A stretch of DNA of 6,229 nt from a virus. The position numbers were made by a program, and so were the translations under genes. Position 1 is the stretch's first letter, and every line of letters starts with the position of its first letter. Below, piece by piece: positions 1 through 6,229 of the stretch. The notes beneath the pieces were generated by a model. It searched no databases, was not told the origin of the DNA, and worked only from the letters and a program-made list of their open reading frames with translations. The stretch is from positions 1-6,229 of the IMG/VR virus record IMGVR_UViG_3300029709_000126; one strand, given 5' to 3'.

Positions 1-77
1 TTTTTAACGTCCGCTGGTACTATTGCGCGCAAGCCTGCAAGGCTTACAGCGAGTAGGCTCCGCCGTAGCGAGCGTAC
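1..77. repeat. Terminal redundancy, copy 1 of 2. It is identical to 6153-6229 and most likely a k=77 assembly overlap marking a circular genome of 6,152 bp.
   Basis: Direct comparison shows 1-77 equals 6153-6229 base for base. An exact 77-nt overlap is characteristic of circular contigs from de Bruijn assemblers at k=77. Confidence 0.9.
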
Positions 78-160
78 AAACAGGAGCGAAGCGACCAAGG
101 AAAGGACGCAGGACTTTCCTCCTTAAACACCCCGAGCGAAGCGAGCTTATTTTCTCGCTA
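11..160. promoter_or_regulatory. GC-rich structured island in the main intergenic region. It carries three hairpins (31-45 aagcct-gca-aggctt; 98-120 aggaaag-[9 nt]-ctttcct; 140-159 agcgag-[8 nt]-ctcgct) and six copies of the pentamer 'agcga'. Candidate replication origin or single-strand initiation signal.
   Basis: I count about 57% GC over 11-160 (85 of 150) in a visibly AT-rich genome. The stems were verified by base pairing. The region lies between the Rep stop and the promoter of the first gene. Confidence 0.45.
84..144. repeat. 11-bp direct repeat 'gagcgaagcga' at 84-94 and 134-144, 50 bp apart (iteron-like).
   Basis: Exact match found by inspection. Each copy is itself a tandem of 'agcga'. 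Two further 'agcgag' copies lie at 48-53 and 67-72. Confidence 0.6.
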
Positions 161-189
161 ATTCTGACTTTCAGCAGCCCCAAGAGGTT

Positions 190-211
190 AAAAAACCCAC
201 TCTTGCGTGGA
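190..211 (-). terminator. Weak intrinsic terminator candidate downstream of the Rep gene.
   Basis: On the minus strand the sequence is 'uccacgcaagaguggg' followed by 'uuuuuu'. This is a 5-bp stem including one U.G pair (211-207 with 200-196), a 6-nt loop, then a U6 run at 195-190. It starts 31 nt after the VP4 stop. Confidence 0.3.
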
Positions 212-241
212 TACGCAATAGGTGTGGTGTTAAAACCTTCC

Positions 242-1342
242 TTACGTTCCAACACTTGACAATAACATTTCGTGCTTCTCTAATATATATGTTTTGTTTC
301 GTTCCCAACTTTCGTAAATCTCTTTATTCCAATCGTTTTCTTCCATAGAAAATTCGGCCTGTGACGGTAACTTTGTTAGAATTTTCGTGCTGAGTTTCTC
401 AGCTAATTTTTTGGCTTCTGCGATAGCTTTGCGTTGTTTTTCTTCCTTCCTGCGTTCTTTCATTGCATTCCACGCTATTGGGTCGTCACCCATCACATTA
501 CGTCCATATTCCTGCCAATATCTTCTTAAATTGTCTATTGTTTTCCAATCGTCGGCTTTGACCTTTTCTCCAAATATCCATAATAGTCCTCTGTTTAGGT
601 TGTTTATCCACATTCTCTCTCGTTCCTCGTCGGTGAATATTTTGTTCTTGTAATATTTGGGCATGGCCATTTTGGTACCGTTTCGGAAGGTATAAGTGGC
701 TACGTCGATTCGTTTGTAGTTTTGTTTTTGCCAGAGGTAATCTAGCCTGTTCATGTATCCTGCACCGATTCCTGCGCTGGCTAATACGACTTGTTTGAAT
801 GTAGGGTGTTTGATGTCTACTTTTAACATGTATTTTGTTATGTAATTGACGCTTCTGCTGTTGCAATATTGACCTATAAAGGAAAATCCGTATTTCCAGT
901 GCTTTTTTATCAGCTCTGCGCTTTTTTGTCCGAAGAATATTCCGTGCAGGTGAATTCTGTCCCCATCTTCTCCTAGCTCTGTGACGCACCAATGTCTTAT
1001 GCTTTTTCCTGTGTCTTTTCTCGCCCTTTCTAGGAATAATCTTAGTCCTTTTGTTGCTATTTCGTTTGGGTTTAATTCCCAGTTTAAGTTGGTTTGTTCT
1101 TCCAGTTCTTTTATTCCTTCTGGCGATATGGTTAGCGTGACAAAGTATCCGAAGTTCAACTTTATTTCTTCTTCCAGTCGCACTCTCCATTCTCGTTGTT
1201 TTTCTTTACGGCATTCAATGCAGCAACCACACTTTACTGGAATGTAGTATAACCTCCTGTCTTTACAGACAGGAGGCTTGCCTTTGTTCTTTTTGTTAGG
1301 TTTGTATTTAGGGTTTCTAATGAATTTAGGATATAAACACAT
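242..1342 (-). CDS. Replication initiation protein (rolling-circle HUH endonuclease; Microviridae VP4 / gene A-like), 366 aa.
   Basis: ATG at 1342-1340. RCR motif I is 'FVTLTI', motif II (HUH) is 'RIHLHGIFFG', and motif III with two catalytic Tyr is 'NYITKYMLK' (Y-x-x-K-Y, as in the phiX174 A protein). The N-terminus carries a Cys cluster 'KCGCCIEC', a zinc-finger-like feature common in microvirus Reps. It is separated from the upstream VP2 stop by one nucleotide (TAA-t-ATG). Confidence 0.93.
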   Translation of the reverse strand: MCLYPKFIRNPKYKPNKKNKGKPPVCKDRRLYYIPVKCGCCIECRKEKQREWRVRLEEEIKLNFGYFVTLTISPEGIKELEEQTNLNWELNPNEIATKGLRLFLERARKDTGKSIRHWCVTELGEDGDRIHLHGIFFGQKSAELIKKHWKYGFSFIGQYCNSRSVNYITKYMLKVDIKHPTFKQVVLASAGIGAGYMNRLDYLWQKQNYKRIDVATYTFRNGTKMAMPKYYKNKIFTDEERERMWINNLNRGLLWIFGEKVKADDWKTIDNLRRYWQEYGRNVMGDDPIAWNAMKERRKEEKQRKAIAEAKKLAEKLSTKILTKLPSQAEFSMEENDWNKEIYESWERNKTYILEKHEMLLSSVGT

Positions 1343-1343
1343 A

Positions 1344-2480
1344 TTAGTATGATTCTGTATATGATTCCGTCGTGATTTGTCCTCCTTTATTTTTTGTTGA
1401 GACTGTTTTCGTTTGCGACTTCTTTCCTCGAAGTTTGATAAACATTTCGGCTATATTTTCTCCGAATTGTAAACCAATTTGAAGTCTTTCGTTGAATGTT
1501 TGCTCTTCCCATCGTTCAATCATTCCTTCTACTTGCTTACGGTATGTTTCTTTGTCCCAATCGTATTTATCGGCTAGTGCGTTTAATTCTTTTGCTGAGG
1601 CTTTTAATTGTTCAATCTGTGCGTCTCCTACTTCTACGTCTTTGTAGGTTTTGGCAATTGACGCTATTAATTGGGCATTCATATAATAAGCTGCGTCTAC
1701 CCTGTCTTCTAAGGTTCTCTTGTCGTATTCATATCCGAGTTTCTCTCTTTGGAATTCCCAGTATACCTTATGAGCCATTTCGCTGTAATAAGTCGCAACG
1801 GCGAATGCTTCGCTAATTTGAGCTCTTGATGAGGCTTCTTTGCTTTCGTTAAGCCTTTGTATGGTCTCTTCTGTACTTTTTTTTGCTTTTGCAAGTTCTT
1901 CCTCTGCTTCTTTTAGTTTTTTGCTGGCGATAAGCTCATCGATTTTGGCGCTCATTTCTTCAATCCGCTTTTCTGCTTCCCTGATATCCACACCTCCAAT
2001 CTTTTTCGCTTCTTCCTCTGCCTTTTTCGCTTGCGCTTCCGCCAAAGCTATCTGTGCGTCATTCATTCTTCTTTGTTGTTCAATCTGTTGTGTTTGTAGA
2101 GCCATGGCGACAGGATTACCTTGTGGTTGTTCTGGACTTGTCTGGTGTGCTCCTCCGCTGGCTCCCATGCCGCCCGCTCCGCTTTGTCCGTACATTAATC
2201 CTATGTTTAACCCTGCATCTTTTAAGTGCTGTACTTGGTTTTCTGCATTTGTGTAATCCCAGTAATCTTTGGCATATTGTTGTGATTTTGCTGCCGCTCC
2301 TTGCTGGTATTGGTTTTGCAGAGCCATGATGTATCTGTTGTATTTTGCTTGCTCATCCATGGCTTTTCTTGGTGACCAGCTTAATCCCAATATTTGGCTT
2401 ATTCCTCCTGTTAAGAGTCCTGTTAGGCCGCTGGCTCCTGAGCTGGCTAATCCTGATATAAATGATTCTTTGAATCCCAT
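1344..2480 (-). CDS. DNA pilot / minor capsid protein (Microviridae VP2 / gene H-like), 378 aa.
   Basis: ATG at 2480-2478. The N-terminus is Gly/Ser/Ala-rich and hydrophobic ('GLASSGASGLTGLLTGGISQILGL'). A second Gly-rich stretch ('GQSGAGGMGASGG') follows. There is a long E/K/A-rich predicted coiled coil ('AEAQAKKAEEEAKK...EELAKAKK'). The size and position between the capsid gene and Rep match microvirus pilot proteins, which form an alpha-helical DNA-translocating tube. Confidence 0.8.
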   Translation of the reverse strand: MGFKESFISGLASSGASGLTGLLTGGISQILGLSWSPRKAMDEQAKYNRYIMALQNQYQQGAAAKSQQYAKDYWDYTNAENQVQHLKDAGLNIGLMYGQSGAGGMGASGGAHQTSPEQPQGNPVAMALQTQQIEQQRRMNDAQIALAEAQAKKAEEEAKKIGGVDIREAEKRIEEMSAKIDELIASKKLKEAEEELAKAKKSTEETIQRLNESKEASSRAQISEAFAVATYYSEMAHKVYWEFQREKLGYEYDKRTLEDRVDAAYYMNAQLIASIAKTYKDVEVGDAQIEQLKASAKELNALADKYDWDKETYRKQVEGMIERWEEQTFNERLQIGLQFGENIAEMFIKLRGKKSQTKTVSTKNKGGQITTESYTESY

Positions 2481-2503
2481 ATTTGGTTTGTTTTAATTTT
2501 TCG

Positions 2504-2523
2504 CCCTTGTAATTTTACAAGGG
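2504..2523. promoter_or_regulatory. Perfect inverted repeat 'cccttgtaa tt ttacaaggg' (9-bp arms) in the leader of VP2, 23 nt upstream of its ATG.
   Basis: Counted directly: 2504-2512 is the exact reverse complement of 2515-2523. It has no flanking U-tract on the coding strand, so it is not a classic terminator. It could be an operator, an RNA stability stem, or an ssDNA structural element. Confidence 0.5.
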
Positions 2524-2570
2524 TTATACATATTACTAGATAATATATGCTACATGCGTACCATTTTGTG

Positions 2571-2607
2571 AAAAATGGAGGGAGAAGAGGTTAAACCTCT
2601 ATCTCCC
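2571..2607 (-). terminator. Intrinsic terminator-like or attenuator hairpin with a U-tract, between the 111-aa gene and VP2.
   Basis: On the minus strand, 'gggaga' (2607-2602) pairs with 'ucuccc' (2585-2580) and 'agagguu' pairs with 'aaccucu' (2600-2586 region). This gives a stem of about 12 bp with a 1-nt bulge and a 3-nt loop, followed by 'uccauuuuuca' (U5 at 2575-2571). It begins 19 nt after the 111-aa gene stop. Confidence 0.4.
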
Positions 2608-2626
2608 AGCCTTTTAGATGTGCGGT

Positions 2627-2962
2627 TTATCCCGCCGATTCCTGCTGCGAAGAATTGTCTCCTATTTCTTTCGAATCGAGGGCATTTTGTTCTTGTTGTT
2701 CAATTTTCCCGTAGTTTTTTGATTTTGCGAGATTTGCCTGGTTTACCGCCTCCATAGCTTGTTGTGCAATATCCCATCGGTCAGTTCTGATGTTGTAAGC
2801 TGGTAATACTCCGTCCTCTCTGTTTGTATAAATGATTGGTGCTCCATCTGTGATAGGTTCATTGTTCTCGGTAATTCTACGTACTTTGTTTTCAATACTT
2901 TCTCCTTCTTGAAATTCATAATTTGTTTTTGGAGGTCTTGAATATAACTTTGGTTTAATCAT
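2627..2962 (-). CDS. Hypothetical small protein (111 aa) between the major capsid and pilot genes. It has a basic N-terminus and an acidic Gln/Ser-rich C-terminal tail. A minor structural or scaffold role is possible.
   Basis: ATG at 2962-2960, 11 nt after the VP1 stop, with a TAA stop at 2629-2627. It is on the same strand and in the same operon, and is followed 19 nt later by a terminator-like hairpin. I recognise no family from the sequence alone. Confidence 0.6.
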   Translation of the reverse strand: MIKPKLYSRPPKTNYEFQEGESIENKVRRITENNEPITDGAPIIYTNREDGVLPAYNIRTDRWDIAQQAMEAVNQANLAKSKNYGKIEQQEQNALDSKEIGDNSSQQESAG

Positions 2963-2973
2963 AATTATAAGTT

Positions 2974-5055
2974 TTAAATATTAGGAATAACTTTTGCTGA
3001 CATGACACGTCTGGGTTTTATGTTAAATGCTATTTGTATCCAAAAATTTTGGGCAGTTATGTCTGTATCAGCGAAGATATTGTTGTAGAGATGTGGAAAT
3101 ACGTATGTTGTGTAGGTATTTATATCTCCAAATATTCTATTTAAGCACATCCAGCCTTCATTTTCGATGAGTGCGAAATTCCCATACGTTTTGTTTACAT
3201 TCGTCATGTATTCAATCCATGCAGGTTGTTTACCGATTGACTTATTTGACATTTCGAGAGATGTATTTGCGTTTAAGCTTCGGTACAATCTGTCTTGAAA
3301 GCCTATACCGTCAAGTTGTGGTTTATGCAAATCGTCTAGTGTCAATAAATAATTGTCCCATTCGTTACCTTGAAAATAATCTACTCGTGGAGTAATGGAG
3401 GTAATACAGAATATATAGCCTGGTTCGTCTGCCTTGAATATAATATTTCCTCCTTTGTGATTGGTCGCTAAACCTCTACCCGCTAACGTACCTAATGGTT
3501 GGTCTTCGGTTCCGCTGTTGTTTACAACTTCTTGGAATTCTATTTCAAGGGAGCTACCTCCGAGGTAAATAGGTGTTTCAATATGGTTTAAACCTCCGCT
3601 AGTATATACGGTTTGAATCCATGCGTTATAACTTCCATCGCTTACTGCAATTCTGTTAAGCATAGTATATACTTTTTTTGCAAGATTTAAGGTATCGAGT
3701 GTAAAGCTTCCTCCCGAAGTATCGATAGCTGTTATTGCATTAATTCCTGTTTCTCCATCAATCCATTCGGTATTAACCCAGTTTGTATTGATATCACTTT
3801 GATAGGTTTTAAGAGCAAGGCCTACCAATGGTTGTGAACAACTTGGTGCTATACCATTTTTTGTTTGTGTAGGTTTAAAGATGTCAACTATGAATCGCTC
3901 TTGTGCTATATATTGAGTTTTCCCTGCTGCGAGTATATTTTCTCTCATATCGTCGATTTCACTCAACTTGTAGCTATTATATCTCGCTTCTACGCTTGTG
4001 GCGAGAGAAGGCTTGTTTACATAAAAATATGTTTTAAAAGTTCTTTCGGTTGGGAGGAATGTAGTTGCGTTAATTTTATAATACTCTACACCTTCGACGG
4101 CGTTGCTTACGAATTCTGTAATGTTTGTTATAACTTCTTTTTCTGTGAGATTGTTTATAGTCCCATATATTTGGATTGCTACTTGACCTCCTACGCCTCC
4201 GCCAGTTTCAACTAGCCAACCAGTTTGCATGTTTATGTTTACTTCTATTTGTCCTGAGTCCTTATCTTGGGTGTATGGCTTTATAGCTAATACCCAAATT
4301 TGGTAGTCTGTGTTTTTTTTAGGATAATCACCTGTAGAGTCTATTAAGTTTGGTATACCCGTAGCGACAATAGACCATGAGCTCTTTTTATCGCTGCTAT
4401 TTGCAAGAGTTATGCTCATTTGTCCTTCGTCGAGAGTGCTTGCTATTTGTTTGTATAAATAATAGGTATTTCCGGATATTACATAAAAATTTTCTTCTTG
4501 TTTGTTTGCATAATAATTTTTAAAGATGTCGTAATACATCATTAGTTTAATGCAGTTGAAAGTTTTATTTCTTGAACCATAAGGCTCTAAGGTTGAGAGA
4601 GCTCTTACCCCTGTATATGCAACTAGTGAGCTTGGATTAACTTCATTGAGTAGAGAGTCGTTACTTCCTTCCATTTTAGTCTTATCGGTATATAGGCTAT
4701 AAGATATTGGAAATATAGGAAATTTTACCTGTTTCATATTTAAACCTATATTTAATGCATTGTTATGCAACATAGCATTATACAGTCTGATAGGACAGAA
4801 GAAGAAGTCGTTTTGCTGTTTAAAGCTTCCGAATAGAGGTCCAATGGTTGGGTGTGTTAGAGTGTGACACTTAGTTTCGATAGGGAAGGTATCCCCTGGT
4901 AATATTAAATGATATAATGTAGGAATTAGAGTTCCTACGGCTGCTGATGTTCGGCAGACACTGCTAAGGTCGTGTGTACTACGGTTATAATTATTCAACC
5001 GTGTCATCATTTTTTTACCCCCGCCGAGGGTGTTTTTTCCAATACTTACTTTCAT
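2974..5055 (-). CDS. Major capsid protein (Microviridae VP1 / gene F-like), 693 aa.
   Basis: The N-terminal region 'NRSTHDLSSVCRTSAAVGTLIPTLYHLILPGDTF' matches the conserved microvirus capsid motif (R-N-R-x-x-DLS ... G-x-L-I/V-P ... LPGDTF). The large size with insertions is typical of gut (Alpavirinae-like) capsids. Its start overlaps the stop of the preceding 83-aa gene (ATGA at 5055-5052). An alternative start at the internal 'MMTRL' cannot be excluded. Confidence 0.95.
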   Translation of the reverse strand: MKVSIGKNTLGGGKKMMTRLNNYNRSTHDLSSVCRTSAAVGTLIPTLYHLILPGDTFPIETKCHTLTHPTIGPLFGSFKQQNDFFFCPIRLYNAMLHNNALNIGLNMKQVKFPIFPISYSLYTDKTKMEGSNDSLLNEVNPSSLVAYTGVRALSTLEPYGSRNKTFNCIKLMMYYDIFKNYYANKQEENFYVISGNTYYLYKQIASTLDEGQMSITLANSSDKKSSWSIVATGIPNLIDSTGDYPKKNTDYQIWVLAIKPYTQDKDSGQIEVNINMQTGWLVETGGGVGGQVAIQIYGTINNLTEKEVITNITEFVSNAVEGVEYYKINATTFLPTERTFKTYFYVNKPSLATSVEARYNSYKLSEIDDMRENILAAGKTQYIAQERFIVDIFKPTQTKNGIAPSCSQPLVGLALKTYQSDINTNWVNTEWIDGETGINAITAIDTSGGSFTLDTLNLAKKVYTMLNRIAVSDGSYNAWIQTVYTSGGLNHIETPIYLGGSSLEIEFQEVVNNSGTEDQPLGTLAGRGLATNHKGGNIIFKADEPGYIFCITSITPRVDYFQGNEWDNYLLTLDDLHKPQLDGIGFQDRLYRSLNANTSLEMSNKSIGKQPAWIEYMTNVNKTYGNFALIENEGWMCLNRIFGDINTYTTYVFPHLYNNIFADTDITAQNFWIQIAFNIKPRRVMSAKVIPNI

Positions 5056-5303
5056 TGTTGTTGTTGTTTATAAAGGTTATTGAGTTTTTGGCACATTGCT
5101 CCGATGATGGATAAGTCTAGGTTGGTGAGACTGAAATTTTCTTCAAGGTATTGTTCTGCCTCTTCTTGACTGTCAAATAAGAGTGGTGACACTACATATT
5201 CTCCCACTATGAAGGTGAATTTATCCTCTTCGCCTATTTTGACGGCTCTCACTTTGACAACATCTTGTCTTGTTGCCCAATCTAATGCTTCTTGTTGTTC
5301 CAT
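5052..5303 (-). CDS. Hypothetical acidic protein (83 aa, about 15 D/E against 7 K/R), translationally coupled to the capsid gene. Candidate scaffolding or assembly protein.
   Basis: ATG at 5303-5301, 2 nt after the 92-aa ORF stop (TAA-tt-ATG). Its TGA stop overlaps the VP1 ATG (ATGA). The predicted alpha/beta pattern is helix 'EQQEALDWATRQ', strand 'VVKVRAVKI', strand 'FTFIVGEYVV', then acidic helix 'DSQEEAEQYLEEN'. Confidence 0.6.
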   Translation of the reverse strand: MEQQEALDWATRQDVVKVRAVKIGEEDKFTFIVGEYVVSPLLFDSQEEAEQYLEENFSLTNLDLSIIGAMCQKLNNLYKQQQQ

Positions 5304-5305
5304 AA

Positions 5306-5584
5306 TTAAATGTTTTTGATTGCTTCAATTTTTGTTAATATAATTCTGCTTTTGCGTAATTCGTCTTCGAGCCGTTCTGCTTCTTTGAATAGACAGCAAT
5401 TCATGACGATTCTGAATCCTTTTAAGAGATTCCCTGTGTCGTAGTCAAAACCTTCCCACATAAGGCAATATGCACCTTCGCTGAATGCTTCGAAAGGTAT
5501 CTTGGCGGATTTAACCCATTCTTTTTTACGGAATTTCCCGTATTTCGTAATCGATGGTATCATTGTGATGTGAAATTGAATCAT
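5306..5584 (-). CDS. Hypothetical protein (92 aa).
   Basis: ATG at 5584-5582. It lies in the operon, on the same strand, in a tight gene array, and overlaps the preceding 72-aa ORF by 59 nt out of frame. No recognisable motifs. An alternative start at Met8 is possible. Confidence 0.5.
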   Translation of the reverse strand: MIQFHITMIPSITKYGKFRKKEWVKSAKIPFEAFSEGAYCLMWEGFDYDTGNLLKGFRIVMNCCLFKEAERLEDELRKSRIILTKIEAIKNI

Positions 5585-5744
5585 TTTTACATTTGTTGTT
5601 TACATTTACGGTATTTCCAGATATTCGCCAGGTGCTGCCGCAACTTTCTATTATATAGGATATTGCCAATAATATGGCGGCACCTATAATACTTGCTACT
5701 GTTTTCCAGTTTTCCTTTAAGAATTGCTTGATTTCTTCTTTCAT
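5526..5744 (-). CDS. Small single-pass membrane protein (72 aa). Candidate lysis (amurin or holin-like) or other membrane-targeted protein.
   Basis: ATG at 5744-5742, one nucleotide after the stop of the first gene (TAG-a-ATG). The protein has a charged N-terminus 'MKEEIKQFLKENWK', then a roughly 20-residue hydrophobic helix 'TVASIIGAAILLAISYII', then a polar C-terminal tail rich in N/S/K/H/D. Confidence 0.5.
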   Translation of the reverse strand: MKEEIKQFLKENWKTVASIIGAAILLAISYIIESCGSTWRISGNTVNVNNKCKNDSISHHNDTIDYEIREIP

Positions 5745-5745
5745 T

Positions 5746-6063
5746 CTAATAAATTTTATAGATTTGAAAATATAAAGTTTCTTTAAATAAATTCCTTATG
5801 GTTGCTACTATTACTCTAATTTCCTTTTTTGAGTAGCCTGTTATTGTTTCGGGAACATTGTATCTGTGTTTCCCTAATAAATCGGCTACCCACAAATGTC
5901 GTGAATTGCTGTGTGTAATGGTTTTAATTATTTTAAAATTATCATAAATATCTTGATAATAATGACATCTTCTGCTGGCTTCTTCTTCGGTTTTTCCGCT
6001 TATGAGAGCTATGTACTTTTCATCTTTATTGAACAAAATGTGTGATACTTTTTTTCTTTCCAT
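5746..6063 (-). CDS. Hypothetical protein, first gene of the operon (105 aa from ATG 6063). The longest ORF version starts at ATG 6132 (128 aa).
   Basis: A Bacteroides-type promoter (TTTG 6120-6117 and TAtcTTTG 6096-6089) lies inside the 6132-start version and 25 nt upstream of the 6063 ATG (MERKKVSHILF...), so I prefer the shorter start. The predicted alpha/beta pattern is 'VSHILF', 'YIALISG', helix 'TEEEASRRCHYYQDIYDNFKIIK', 'HLWVADLLG'. No known family recognised. The TAG stop is at 5748-5746. Confidence 0.6.
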   Translation of the reverse strand: MERKKVSHILFNKDEKYIALISGKTEEEASRRCHYYQDIYDNFKIIKTITHSNSRHLWVADLLGKHRYNVPETITGYSKKEIRVIVATIRNLFKETLYFQIYKIY

Positions 6064-6088
6064 AATCTTGTGTTTTTTTGTTACAATA

Positions 6089-6120
6089 CAAAGATAATAC
6101 AGAAAGTCCCCTTTTCCAAA
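6089..6120 (-). promoter_or_regulatory. Bacteroidetes sigma-A-type promoter: -33 TTTG (6120-6117), 20-nt spacer, -7 TAtcTTTG (6096-6089).
   Basis: On the minus strand the sequence reads 'TTTGgaaaaggggactttctgtatTAtcTTTG', which matches the Bacteroides consensus (TTTG, 19-21 nt, TAnnTTTG). It is the only TAnnTTTG on the coding strand that has a correctly spaced TTTG. It sits in the only sizeable non-coding gap upstream of the gene array. No gene in the genome has a Shine-Dalgarno sequence. Confidence 0.5.
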
Positions 6121-6152
6121 TAAATATCCCATTTTAACATATGTAATTAACG

Positions 6153-6229
6153 TTTTTAACGTCCGCTGGTACTATTGCGCGCAAGCCTGCAAGGCTTACA
6201 GCGAGTAGGCTCCGCCGTAGCGAGCGTAC
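6153..6229. repeat. Terminal redundancy, copy 2 of 2 (duplicate of 1-77).
   Basis: Exact 77/77 identity with the window start. The sequence after 6152 simply re-enters the genome at position 1. Confidence 0.9.

Follow-up and report, generated by a model that had tools for sequence, protein, structure and literature searches.

What is the role of the GC-rich, hairpin-forming island next to the Rep gene in this gut microvirus genome? The window we analyzed, a stretch of 6,229 nt, covers positions 1–6,229 of the IMG/VR record IMGVR_UViG_3300029709_000126. Positions 1–77 are identical to positions 6153–6229, hence the sequence is a circular genome of 6,152 nt, which belongs to a Bacteroidales microvirus. 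An earlier note had described the island from the sequence alone and proposed that it is a complementary-strand origin or single-strand initiation site, a set of Rep-binding iterons of the rolling-circle origin, or a gene for a very basic J/VP5-like protein. Our results show that the island is not a gene but a conserved, non-coding cluster of DNA hairpins that is exchanged between unrelated gut microviruses. Most likely it starts second-strand DNA synthesis, although this function is inferred from sequence alone.

The island described in the note does exist. The GC content of positions 11–160 is 0.567, compared to 0.380 for the genome (standard deviation 0.054 for 150-nt windows). The only other stretch with at least 50% GC (2015–2106) lies inside the pilot gene, which leaves the island as the only non-coding GC-rich block. 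The 11-mer GAGCGAAGCGA occurs exactly twice and AGCGA six times. All of the hairpins are present, including a terminator-like hairpin followed by a T6 tract, whose fold is highly non-random (z = -5.3 as DNA and -4.3 as RNA). For hairpin H2 the value is z = -2.8. Both open reading frames, one on each strand, also exist as described. Because the genome is circular, the true non-coding interval is about 330 nt long (Table 1).

Table 1. Positions of the island, its parts and its neighborhood in the window.
Feature	Position	Strand	Description
Non-coding interval	6064–6152 plus 1–241		About 330 nt
Whole exchangeable cassette	19–244	+	Boundaries defined by comparison with an unrelated microvirus lineage; minus strand reads GTA/AGGrAGGTTTTAACACC ... 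GCGCGCAATAGT; its first bases supply the Rep stop codon (242–244)
Conserved end block	19–30	+	ACTATTGCGCGC (minus strand GCGCGCAATAGT); conserved in both lineages, and as TATTGCCCG in the diverged copies
Hairpin H2	31–45	+	AAGCCT-GCA-AGGCTT; loop GCA on the plus strand, TGC on the minus strand
Conserved sequence block	46–77	+	ACAGCGAG...GAGCGTAC; contains the central hairpin H3 (53–77), which is replaced by TTGC-GAA-GCAA in one copy (L158)
GCGAAGC mini-hairpin unit 2	86–92	+	Inside the 11-mer at 84–94; optional in the family
Hairpin H1	98–120	+	GGAAAG...CTTTCC base with a variable apex
Conserved linker	121–133	+	CCTTAAACACCCC (minus strand GGGGTGTTTAAGG); TGTwTAAGG is invariant in the family and retained in the diverged Rep94-type copies
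GCGAAGC mini-hairpin unit 1	136–142	+	Inside the 11-mer at 134–144; replaced by GCCC-GAA-GGGC in another copy (L160b), which keeps the GAA loop with a different stem
AGCGA copies	48, 67, 85, 90, 135, 140		
Terminator-type hairpin	186–238	-	Long imperfect hairpin with T6 (190–195) at its 3' foot, directly after the Rep stop codon; also part of the cassette's left arm
Optional insert	9–18	+	About 12 nt between the cassette end and the AT-rich block; present or absent among relatives
AT-rich block	6131–6160	-	GTTAAAAACGTTAATTACATATGTTAAAAT; three GTTAAA repeats, GTTAAA invariant; outside the exchangeable cassette and specific to the window's family
Bacteroidetes-type promoter	6089–6120	-	TTTG-N20-TATCTTTG
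83-aa ORF	4–255	-	GTG start
78-aa ORF	23–259	+	Opposite strand

The note's interpretation is partly supported. It had named conservation of stems with compensatory changes, as opposed to conservation of a reading frame, as the criterion for a structural element, and the structural reading passes this test. In H2, 98.8% of cells are paired, four of six pairs change on both sides, and none of 500 shuffles reaches the observed covariation. Six stem variants occur in the surveyed set, and a seventh (ACACCT/AGGTGT) is found in diverged copies. H1 occurs in 37 distinct versions, all of which fold as hairpins, with many compensated stems. In contrast, a further helix, H4, proposed by RNAalifold, shows no compensatory change and eight breaks, and the minimum-free-energy fold prefers H3. 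Hence, we treat this stretch as a conserved sequence block. In the set of relatives selected through Rep, the conserved blocks show 85% pairwise identity compared to 55% at four-fold sites of Rep. The core of the island is present in 25 of 25 relatives selected in this way.

Three points of the note need correction. First, the "iterons" are GCGAAGC mini-hairpin units rather than Rep-binding repeats. Their copy number varies among relatives (0, 1 or 2 copies in 8, 54 and 24 distinct islands), and the same cassette serves phages whose Reps are only 24% identical. Second, the hairpin with the U6 tract, which the note had counted against coding, is a real feature: positions 212–195 plus T6 are the only terminator-like site on the coding strand. 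The full element is present in about 12 relatives of the window's family and in the close copies of the second lineage described below. Third, the strand on which the structure appears to be selected is the plus strand of the window, which is not the coding strand.

How widely is the cassette distributed? Searches of GenBank phages returned no DNA match in either the near or the distant mode. In the metagenome scan all 76 hits are on microvirus genomes, two of which are prophages inside host contigs. The same approximately 225 nt (window 12/19–242, 80–82% identity) are the only DNA that the window shares with a second microvirus lineage. The genomes of this lineage (Rep94-type) carry a Rep that is 24% identical to that of the window, and include Barnesiella prophages integrated at dif. 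Scans of IMG/VR with sub-modules of the cassette revealed no new contexts. When we looked for filled and empty sites, the IMG/VR scan gave only one distant Rep94 relative, but protein-based sampling showed diverged cassettes rather than empty sites. These older, diverged copies sit in the same slot and orientation. One further match (L069) is a chance match in a high-GC phage.

In the second lineage the cassette is inverted relative to the genes. However, the base composition at synonymous sites is inverted too. The window's genes are A-rich (A 0.49, T 0.21), whereas those of L103, a Rep94-type genome, are T-rich (T 0.61, A 0.13), like those of phiX174 (T 0.59, A 0.085). In host genes A and T are about equal. 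Relative to the T-rich, C-poor strand, which resembles single-stranded DNA, the cassette therefore has the same orientation in both lineages. The loops point to the same strand: 16 of 20 H1 triloops are T-N-C on the minus strand, which is G-N-A on the plus strand, and the H2 loop and both GCGAAGC units also have this form on the plus strand. Only G-N-A triloops are reported to form ultra-stable DNA mini-hairpins, which bind SSB poorly and are found at the primase start sites of the complementary-strand origins of G4, St-1 and alpha3, and in RSF1010 ssiA (PMC13037366). Which strand is packaged is inferred from composition only. Comparing minimum free energies of the two strands gave no consistent preference. 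Polarized substitutions were saturated in the wide set and showed only a trend in close relatives (G>A 0.100 vs. C>T 0.055 per site, p = 0.067).

We consider it somewhat more likely than not that the cassette is a complementary-strand origin (a single-strand initiation signal, SSO/ssi-like). In this view, the hairpins and the GCGAAGC/G-N-A mini-hairpins would stay folded and poorly coated by SSB on the packaged single strand, and the host priming machinery (primase, or a primosome or RNA polymerase) would start second-strand synthesis there. Our analysis demonstrates that the region is non-coding, that H1 and H2 are maintained by compensatory change, that specific sequence blocks are under constraint, that the cassette is exchanged among microviruses, and that its orientation is fixed relative to the T-rich strand. 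That it primes DNA synthesis, also on SSB-coated DNA, and which host factor recognizes it, are inferences, made without functional data and without known priming signals in Bacteroidales. Recognition by the host rather than by Rep is suggested by the association with Reps that are 24% identical, and by the fact that H2 type does not track the Rep tree. No nick site or viral-strand origin could be located in our searches to anchor the replication map.

The first hairpin of the cassette additionally reads as the intrinsic terminator of the single operon on the coding strand, with termination activity predicted from sequence. The cassette as a whole fills the gap between this terminator and the single promoter, which is the only match on the coding strand (0.24 expected per genome over both strands) and is conserved in the family alignment.

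The closest known systems are the primase-dependent complementary-strand origins of G4, St-1 and alpha3, which have three hairpins and a mini-hairpin in Hairpin I. Like these, the island is a cluster of about three hairpins in a non-coding spacer of a microvirus, with G-N-A or GNNA mini-hairpin motifs (GCGAAAGC in G4, GCGAAGC twice here) on the strand inferred to be single-stranded and conserved linkers between the hairpins. It differs in having no sequence similarity beyond the motif, a Bacteroidales host, and the form of an exchangeable cassette with only inferred activity. The phiX174 n' (PriA) primosome assembly site is also a hairpin region in an intergenic spacer (F-G) of the packaged strand (PMC9865509). 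This spacer carries on the viral strand the 9-mer AGCGAAGCG, which it shares with the island; PriA recognition has no defined consensus, and only this short motif is shared. Single-strand origins of rolling-circle plasmids (ssoA, ssoU and others) are structured, non-coding and host-dependent, orientation-specific relative to the displaced strand, and found as interchangeable cassettes on replicons with unrelated Rep proteins. Here, one cassette occurs with two unrelated Reps in a fixed orientation relative to the T-rich strand, but on a phage rather than a plasmid and without an RS_B or CS-6 consensus on the relevant strand. Finally, intergenic hairpins adjacent to Rep, with invariant loops and compensatory stem changes, have been described in reekeekee- and roodoodooviruses, tentatively assigned to negative-strand initiation and proposed as primosome sites (PMC9865509). 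These are different clades and sequences, and neither cassette exchange nor a strand-composition argument was reported there.

One could also argue that the window's whole clade packages the strand complementary to its genes, which would make it a "negative-sense" microvirus lineage. The clade comprises about 100 close and 29 of 31 distant relatives examined, including Phocaeicola, Dysgonomonas and Bacteroides prophages of the Alpavirinae type. At synonymous sites these genomes are the mirror image of phiX174, phiHBP1 and the Rep94-type phages (A-rich vs. T-rich coding strand; A/(A+G) 0.83 with T/(T+C) 0.46), and the shared cassette with its mini-hairpins sits on the T-rich strand in both lineages. 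The cassette would then be a portable complementary-strand origin whose orientation tracks the packaged strand rather than the genes. This possibility is tentative, and we consider it slightly less likely than not. It would, however, contradict the long-held assumption that all Microviridae package the coding strand, an assumption that the orientation and the mirrored composition make testable. If the assumption fails for this abundant gut clade, then genome orientation in databases, ssDNA-virome quantification and models of microvirus mutation would all need revisiting. Independently of this, the cassette provides a defined candidate of about 225 nt, with clear sub-elements, for second-strand initiation outside the phiX174/G4 group, a step for which no mechanism is known there or in Bacteroidales hosts. 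Its exchange between phages with unrelated Reps shows that non-coding, putative replication modules move between microviruses, as SSO cassettes do between plasmids.

The strongest alternative, albeit an unlikely one, is that the region is only a transcription terminator or insulator, which stops or attenuates transcription and protects mRNA 3' ends without any role in replication. The cassette abuts a stop codon in both lineages, and hairpin clusters can terminate transcription (PMC8355165). Distant relatives have other hairpin clusters in this slot or, in distant Rep94-type relatives, only a plain terminator, so part of the cassette could serve termination. It is unlikely that termination is the whole explanation, for the following reasons. 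First, the sequence blocks between the hairpins are under strong constraint, which termination does not require. Second, the terminator accounts for only about 50 of the approximately 225 nt, and most of the cassette lies downstream of it. Third, in the second lineage the T-tract hairpin faces the wrong way. Fourth, in the window's family the G-N-A loop bias is on the non-transcribed-sense strand.

It is doubtful that the region is the viral-strand origin, with Rep nicking in or next to the invariant loop of H2 and CGCT-type repeats as iterons. A covarying stem with an invariant loop and adjacent short repeats does resemble the origins of CRESS-DNA viruses and RCR plasmids. There is also a recombination breakpoint between the conserved block and H2, and the neighboring AT-rich block in relatives (GATGTTAATAAC) resembles the phiX174 origin sequence GATATTAATAAC. 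However, specificity is not coupled to a cognate Rep: the cassette occurs with unrelated Reps, H2 type is close to random on the Rep tree, and the repeats can be absent. The island also contains no CTTGATA-type (CAACTTG/ATA-like) nick motif, and none is positionally conserved on either strand. CTTGATA is absent from the coding strand of the window, and its single copy (5952, plus strand) lies inside a gene. In relatives it is scattered on that strand, and in some Rep94-type genomes it is mutated to CTCGATA. The second lineage has its own deeply conserved phiX-like AACTYGATAT element elsewhere.

Even less likely is a selfish or neutral recombination cassette that spreads by gene conversion between co-infecting microviruses without a function for the phage. 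Island variants do form a mosaic relative to the Rep tree, the cassette is shared between unrelated lineages, and occasional recombination between distant microviruses has been reported (PMC9239249). However, the universal presence of the core among the Rep-selected relatives, the purifying constraint on its blocks and the compensated stems argue against this reading, as does its absence outside microviruses in the metagenome scan. An IS200/IS605-type PATE or MITE is rejected as well, since the end hairpins are unlike each other, there are no terminal inverted repeats or target-site duplications, and there are no host copies in the metagenome scan beyond the two prophages.

A dif-like attP site for XerC/XerD-mediated integration or multimer resolution is very improbable. 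Distant relatives do integrate at dif through a site in the same Rep-to-first-gene spacer, as reported for Alpavirinae proviruses (PMC3091885), and the Phocaeicola prophage L045 is flanked by a 19-nt GC hairpin repeat that resembles H2. However, the similarity between the L045 host flank and the island is marginal (score 33 compared to a shuffle maximum of 35). There is no 11-6-11 site: the AT-rich block has a 9/11 XerD-like arm, but no XerC arm or spacer matching the Bacteroidales dif sites that we reconstructed. No integrated member of this lineage was found among the best 120 of 1,313 Rep homologues, and long contigs are chimeric concatemers. In L094, which carries the cassette at 3655–3871, the dif-type attP (junction repeats at 2148 and 8411) is physically separate from it. 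Searches for tRNAs (ARAGORN) and Rfam families found nothing in the island, even at E ≤ 10 for Rfam, nor at the L045 attB.

The basic J/VP5-like protein is refuted, because tblastn similarity is split across frames in most of the 25 relatives (one relative, L005, is colinear with the open and basic ORF), indels of 4, 6, 16 and 19 nt occur, the opposite-strand ORF scores equally well, a terminator lies inside the ORF, and neither ORF has a PHROG match or a Pfam match above threshold (one weak zf_Tbcl hit, E = 0.017, 15.5 bits against a cut-off of 24).

The neighboring AT-rich block, outside the exchangeable cassette, shows 84% pairwise identity, compared to 55% at four-fold sites.

The genome is complete and circular, with an exact terminal overlap that makes the sequence a circularly permuted unit of 6,152 nt. 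All convincing genes lie on the minus strand: Rep (PF23343, phrog_942), a pilot protein, a 111-aa ORF, an F-type major capsid protein of 693 aa and several small ORFs. On the coding strand there is exactly one Bacteroidetes-type promoter, TTTG-N20-TATCTTTG, with 0.24 expected per genome over both strands, and exactly one terminator-like site, a hairpin followed by T6. The promoter is conserved across the family. It lies inside a 128-aa ORF that is probably over-extended: the real start is probably the conserved ATG at 6063, because the gene is called at 105 aa on other contigs. Hence, the real non-coding interval is longer than the island itself and continues across the ends of the sequence as presented. 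A second non-coding spacer of 146 nt, between the 111-aa ORF and the pilot gene, contains hairpins, for example CCCTTGTAAAATTACAAGGG and GGGAGATAGAGGTTTAACCTCTTCTCCC, followed by a T-rich run on the coding strand. It may be an internal attenuator.

Positions of the features discussed, in the 6,229-nt sequence unless another locus is named
Feature	Position	Strand	Remark
Terminal overlap	1-77 and 6153-6229		exact, 77 nt
Non-coding interval	6064-6152 plus 1-241
GC-rich island	11-160		GC 0.567, against 0.380 genome-wide
Hairpin H2	31-45
Central hairpin	53-77
Hairpin H1	98-120
Terminator-like element	186-238		z = -5.3 as DNA, -4.3 as RNA
Terminator-like site	212-195	-	hairpin followed by T6
Apex of the terminator hairpin	203-218	-	TTGCGT-ATCC-ACGCAA
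DNA shared with the second phage lineage	12/19-242		80-82% identity
Rep stop codon	242-244	-	supplied by the left end of the cassette
Rep	242-1342	-
Pilot protein	1344-2480	-
Other stretch with at least 50% GC	2015-2106		coding
Second non-coding spacer	2481-2626		146 nt
Major capsid protein	2974-5055	-	693 aa
128-aa ORF	5746-6132	-	probable start at 6063
Match to the phiX174 origin core	5946-5962	+	inside the first gene
Promoter	6120-6089	-
L094 (prophage), flanking repeats	2148-2167 and 8411-8430		20 nt
L094, AACTYGATAT element	~3520-3545	coding
L094, cassette	3655-3871		inverted relative to the genes
L045 (prophage), flanking repeats	3041-3059 and 9113-9131		19 nt, palindromic

The earlier note had described a GC-rich island with hairpins and repeats in an AT-rich genome, and this observation is confirmed in every detail. 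GAGCGAAGCGA occurs twice and AGCGA six times, the hairpins are present, and the terminator-like element folds far better than shuffled sequences. Only one other stretch of the genome reaches 50% GC, and it is coding. The note's interpretation is partly supported: of its two alternatives, an origin or initiation site and a small basic gene, the gene is refuted and the origin or single-strand initiation (ssi) reading is the best explanation.

The island is not a gene. A Rep-based scan of IMG/VR returned 25 close relatives (Rep 79–88% identical) and 19 distant ones. The core of the island is conserved as DNA in all 25 close relatives, but the alignment has indels of 4, 6, 16 and 19 nt. In most relatives, tblastn similarity to the proposed 83-aa ORF jumps between frames, and the 78-aa ORF on the opposite strand scores just as well. 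Neither ORF matches a protein family above threshold.

Read in the sense of the genes, the interval starts with the Rep stop codon, followed by a long imperfect hairpin with T6 (called T here), a weak small hairpin, AGCTCGCTTCGCTCGGGGTGTTTAAGG, hairpin H1, an optional GGTCGCTTCGCTCC, the block GTACGCTC...TCGCTGT, which contains a central hairpin, hairpin H2 (AAGCCT-TGC-AGGCTT), GCGCGCAATAGT, an optional 12-nt insert, an AT-rich block with three GTTAAA repeats and finally the promoter. The apex of the terminator hairpin reads GTATCCACG (GTATTCACG in relatives). This is a 7/9 match to the DnaA-box consensus TTWTNCACA, and the variable base falls at the degenerate position.

For H2, six stem variants occur among the distinct sequences of both groups, 98.8% of cells are paired, 4 of 6 pairs change on both sides, 0 of 500 shuffles reach the observed covariation and the slid controls collapse. 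H1 exists in 37 distinct versions, all of which fold, with many compensated stems. A further helix proposed by RNAalifold (H4) shows no compensatory change and eight breaks, and we treat that region as a conserved sequence block with a central hairpin. In the set of relatives selected through Rep, which is unbiased with respect to the island, the block is 85% identical between pairs and the AT-rich block 84% identical, whereas four-fold sites of the adjacent Rep gene are 55% identical. Hence, constraint goes beyond hairpin formation. The repeat that had been read as an iteron, TCGCTTCGCTC, occurs in 0, 1 or 2 copies in 8, 54 and 24 distinct islands, respectively.

The island is also an exchangeable cassette. 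We scanned metagenomes with a pattern that fixes only the conserved block and the invariant parts of H2. This returned 76 loci, all from human gut, two of which lie on long contigs. One of these, L094, is a true prophage flanked by SmpB, a THUMP-like methyltransferase and a TPR gene, and these flanking proteins are exact matches to Barnesiella intestinihominis proteins. The Rep of L094 is 24% and its capsid protein 26% identical to those of our genome. Nevertheless, about 215 nt nearly identical to the island sit internally in L094, between a small hydrophobic ORF and Rep, inverted relative to the genes. The same arrangement occurs in free genomes (L103, L147, L139 and L066/L068). The cassette is the only DNA shared between the two phage types.

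Relatives of this second lineage (Rep94-type) that were selected through the protein carry older, diverged copies in the same slot and orientation. These copies have new H1 and H2 stems (for example ACACCT-GCA-AGGTGT), a replaced central hairpin (TTGC-GAA-GCAA) and GCCC-GAA-GGGC in place of GCGAAGC. More distant relatives of the second lineage have only a plain terminator in that slot. Within the family of our genome, H2 type is almost random on the Rep tree (33 changes in tree order, against a random mean of 40.8), and all H2 types combine with all variants of the adjacent block. The island is therefore a recombination mosaic. Relatives that carry the left arm of the cassette have shorter Reps (363–366 aa) than most others (367–382 aa), which suggests that acquiring the arm replaced the C-terminal tail of Rep.

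The hairpin loops are strongly biased with respect to strand. Of 20 H1 triloops, 16 are T-N-C in gene sense, which is G-N-A on the plus strand. On that strand the H2 loop is GCA and the two supposed iterons are GCGAAGC. Kimoto and Hirao (PMC13037366) report that only G-N-A triloops form the extraordinarily stable DNA mini-hairpins (GCGAAGC has a Tm of 76 C). They also report that such motifs sit at the primase start sites of the G4, St-1 and alpha3 complementary-strand origins, in ssiA of RSF1010 and in N4 single-stranded promoters, and that they bind SSB poorly. The phiX174 F-G spacer, which holds the n' primosome site, carries AGCGAAGCG on the viral strand.

The inversion of the cassette between the two lineages can be resolved by base composition at synonymous sites. 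The coding strand of the clade of our genome is strongly A-rich (A up to 0.73 across our genome and loci L001-L056 and L076-L151), the mirror image of phiX174, phiHBP1 and the Rep94-type microviruses. The pattern is lineage-wide: about 100 close and 29 of 31 distant relatives are A-rich, whereas 14 of 15 Rep94-type loci are T-rich. Host genes flanking the prophages have A roughly equal to T, whereas prophages in those same chromosomes are skewed in opposite directions.

Base composition at synonymous sites of the coding strand
Genome or group	A at four-fold sites	T at four-fold sites	T/(T+C) at NNY	A/(A+G) at NNR
This genome	0.49	0.21	0.46	0.83
L103 (Rep94-type)	0.13	0.61	0.80	0.64
phiX174	0.085	0.59	0.67	0.42
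phiHBP1 (cultured B. fragilis microvirus)	0.13	0.65	0.77	0.52

The thymine excess of ssDNA phages is attributed to C-to-T pressure on the single-stranded genome (PMC3278643). On that logic, the strand of this clade that spends time single-stranded would be the non-coding strand, that is, the plus strand. The cassette would then have the same orientation relative to that strand in both lineages, with its G-N-A loops on it. A direct test was weak: polarised substitutions among close relatives gave G>A 0.100 against C>T 0.055 per third-position site (p = 0.067), and the wider set was saturated. Roux et al. note that complementary-strand genes are essentially unreported in Microviridae (PMC3394797), and our literature search found no report of this composition reversal.

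The best-supported reading, in which we have moderate confidence, is that the island is a complementary-strand origin cassette (ssi/SSO-like) on the packaged strand, recognised by host machinery. Its first hairpin would double as the operon terminator in our genome. Our analysis shows that the cassette is non-coding, that its structure is under selection and its sequence under constraint, that it is exchanged between lineages and that its orientation relative to the T-rich strand is the same in both lineages. That it primes DNA synthesis, which host factor is involved, which strand is packaged and that transcription terminates at the first hairpin are all inferences. Comparable conserved hairpins next to Rep have been tentatively assigned this role in other clades (PMC9865509), and exchangeable SSO cassettes occur on rolling-circle plasmids. 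One could also argue, more tentatively, that this abundant gut clade packages the strand antisense to its genes. We consider this possible, but slightly less likely than not.

Among the alternatives, the one that survives best, although it is unlikely, is that the island is only a cluster of terminators. It is also unlikely that the island is a Rep-specific, viral-strand origin, because the cassette serves phages with unrelated Reps. On the plus strand, ATCTTGATAATAATGAC matches the phiX174 origin core AACTTGATATTAATAAC at 14 of 17 positions, on the non-coding strand and inside the first gene. It is not positionally conserved in relatives, so it is probably a chance match. All Rep94-type genomes share a deeply conserved AACTYGATAT...GCnnAACTGACA...CGATTTGCC element on the coding strand just upstream of Rep, for example in L094, L158, L160-L164, L066/L068 and L139. 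It resembles the phiX174 viral-strand origin (CAACTTGATATTAATAAC) and is a candidate nick site for that lineage. A recombination cassette without any function is less likely still.

We also considered integration, and set it aside as very unlikely. Krupovic and Forterre proposed dif-like attP sites and Xer-mediated integration for Bacteroidetes microvirus proviruses (PMC3091885). A genome scan indeed found integrated relatives with Reps 37–66% identical to that of our genome. Their att repeats reconstruct host sites that read as 11-6-11 dif sites, and attP lies in the spacer between Rep and the first gene. However, a Phocaeicola prophage, L045 (Rep 65% identical), is instead flanked by a perfect 19-nt palindromic GC-rich repeat, GTATTCGCGCCGAATACAG. 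This hairpin resembles H2, but homology of the L045 flanks to the island is marginal. The island itself has no full XerC-spacer-XerD site. Our genome's own lineage is never seen integrated: its exact Rep occurs only on contigs of 6.3 kb or less, and among the 120 best of 1,313 Rep homologues the longest contigs are mostly about 6.1 kb. The longer ones that were inspected (L073, and the long IMG/VR contigs) are concatemers. Contigs longer than one genome unit (L005, L008, L011, L013, L022, L073, L097 and L141) are concatemers whose repeated ends are only 77–97% identical, meaning that they are chimeric assemblies of co-occurring strains, which could be mistaken for larger genomes or prophages. 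The weakest alternative, a gene in the island, is refuted by the broken reading frame.

In the second lineage, L094 is integrated at a textbook dif site, ATTTGTCCTATAA-TTTGTA-TTATGTTAAAT. Rep94-type prophages of Barnesiellaceae (Barnesiella intestinihominis and Coprobacter secundus; L094 and L158-L161) are all inserted at one locus, between TPR/gyrA and THUMP-methyltransferase/SmpB. The XerD arm of this dif site, TTATGTTAAAT, equals that of E. coli, and L160 holds two prophages in tandem. Some contigs encoding the exact Rep of our genome (L060-L062) have a different upstream gene that ends about 72 nt before Rep, instead of the pilot gene abutting it, which indicates recombinant backbones.
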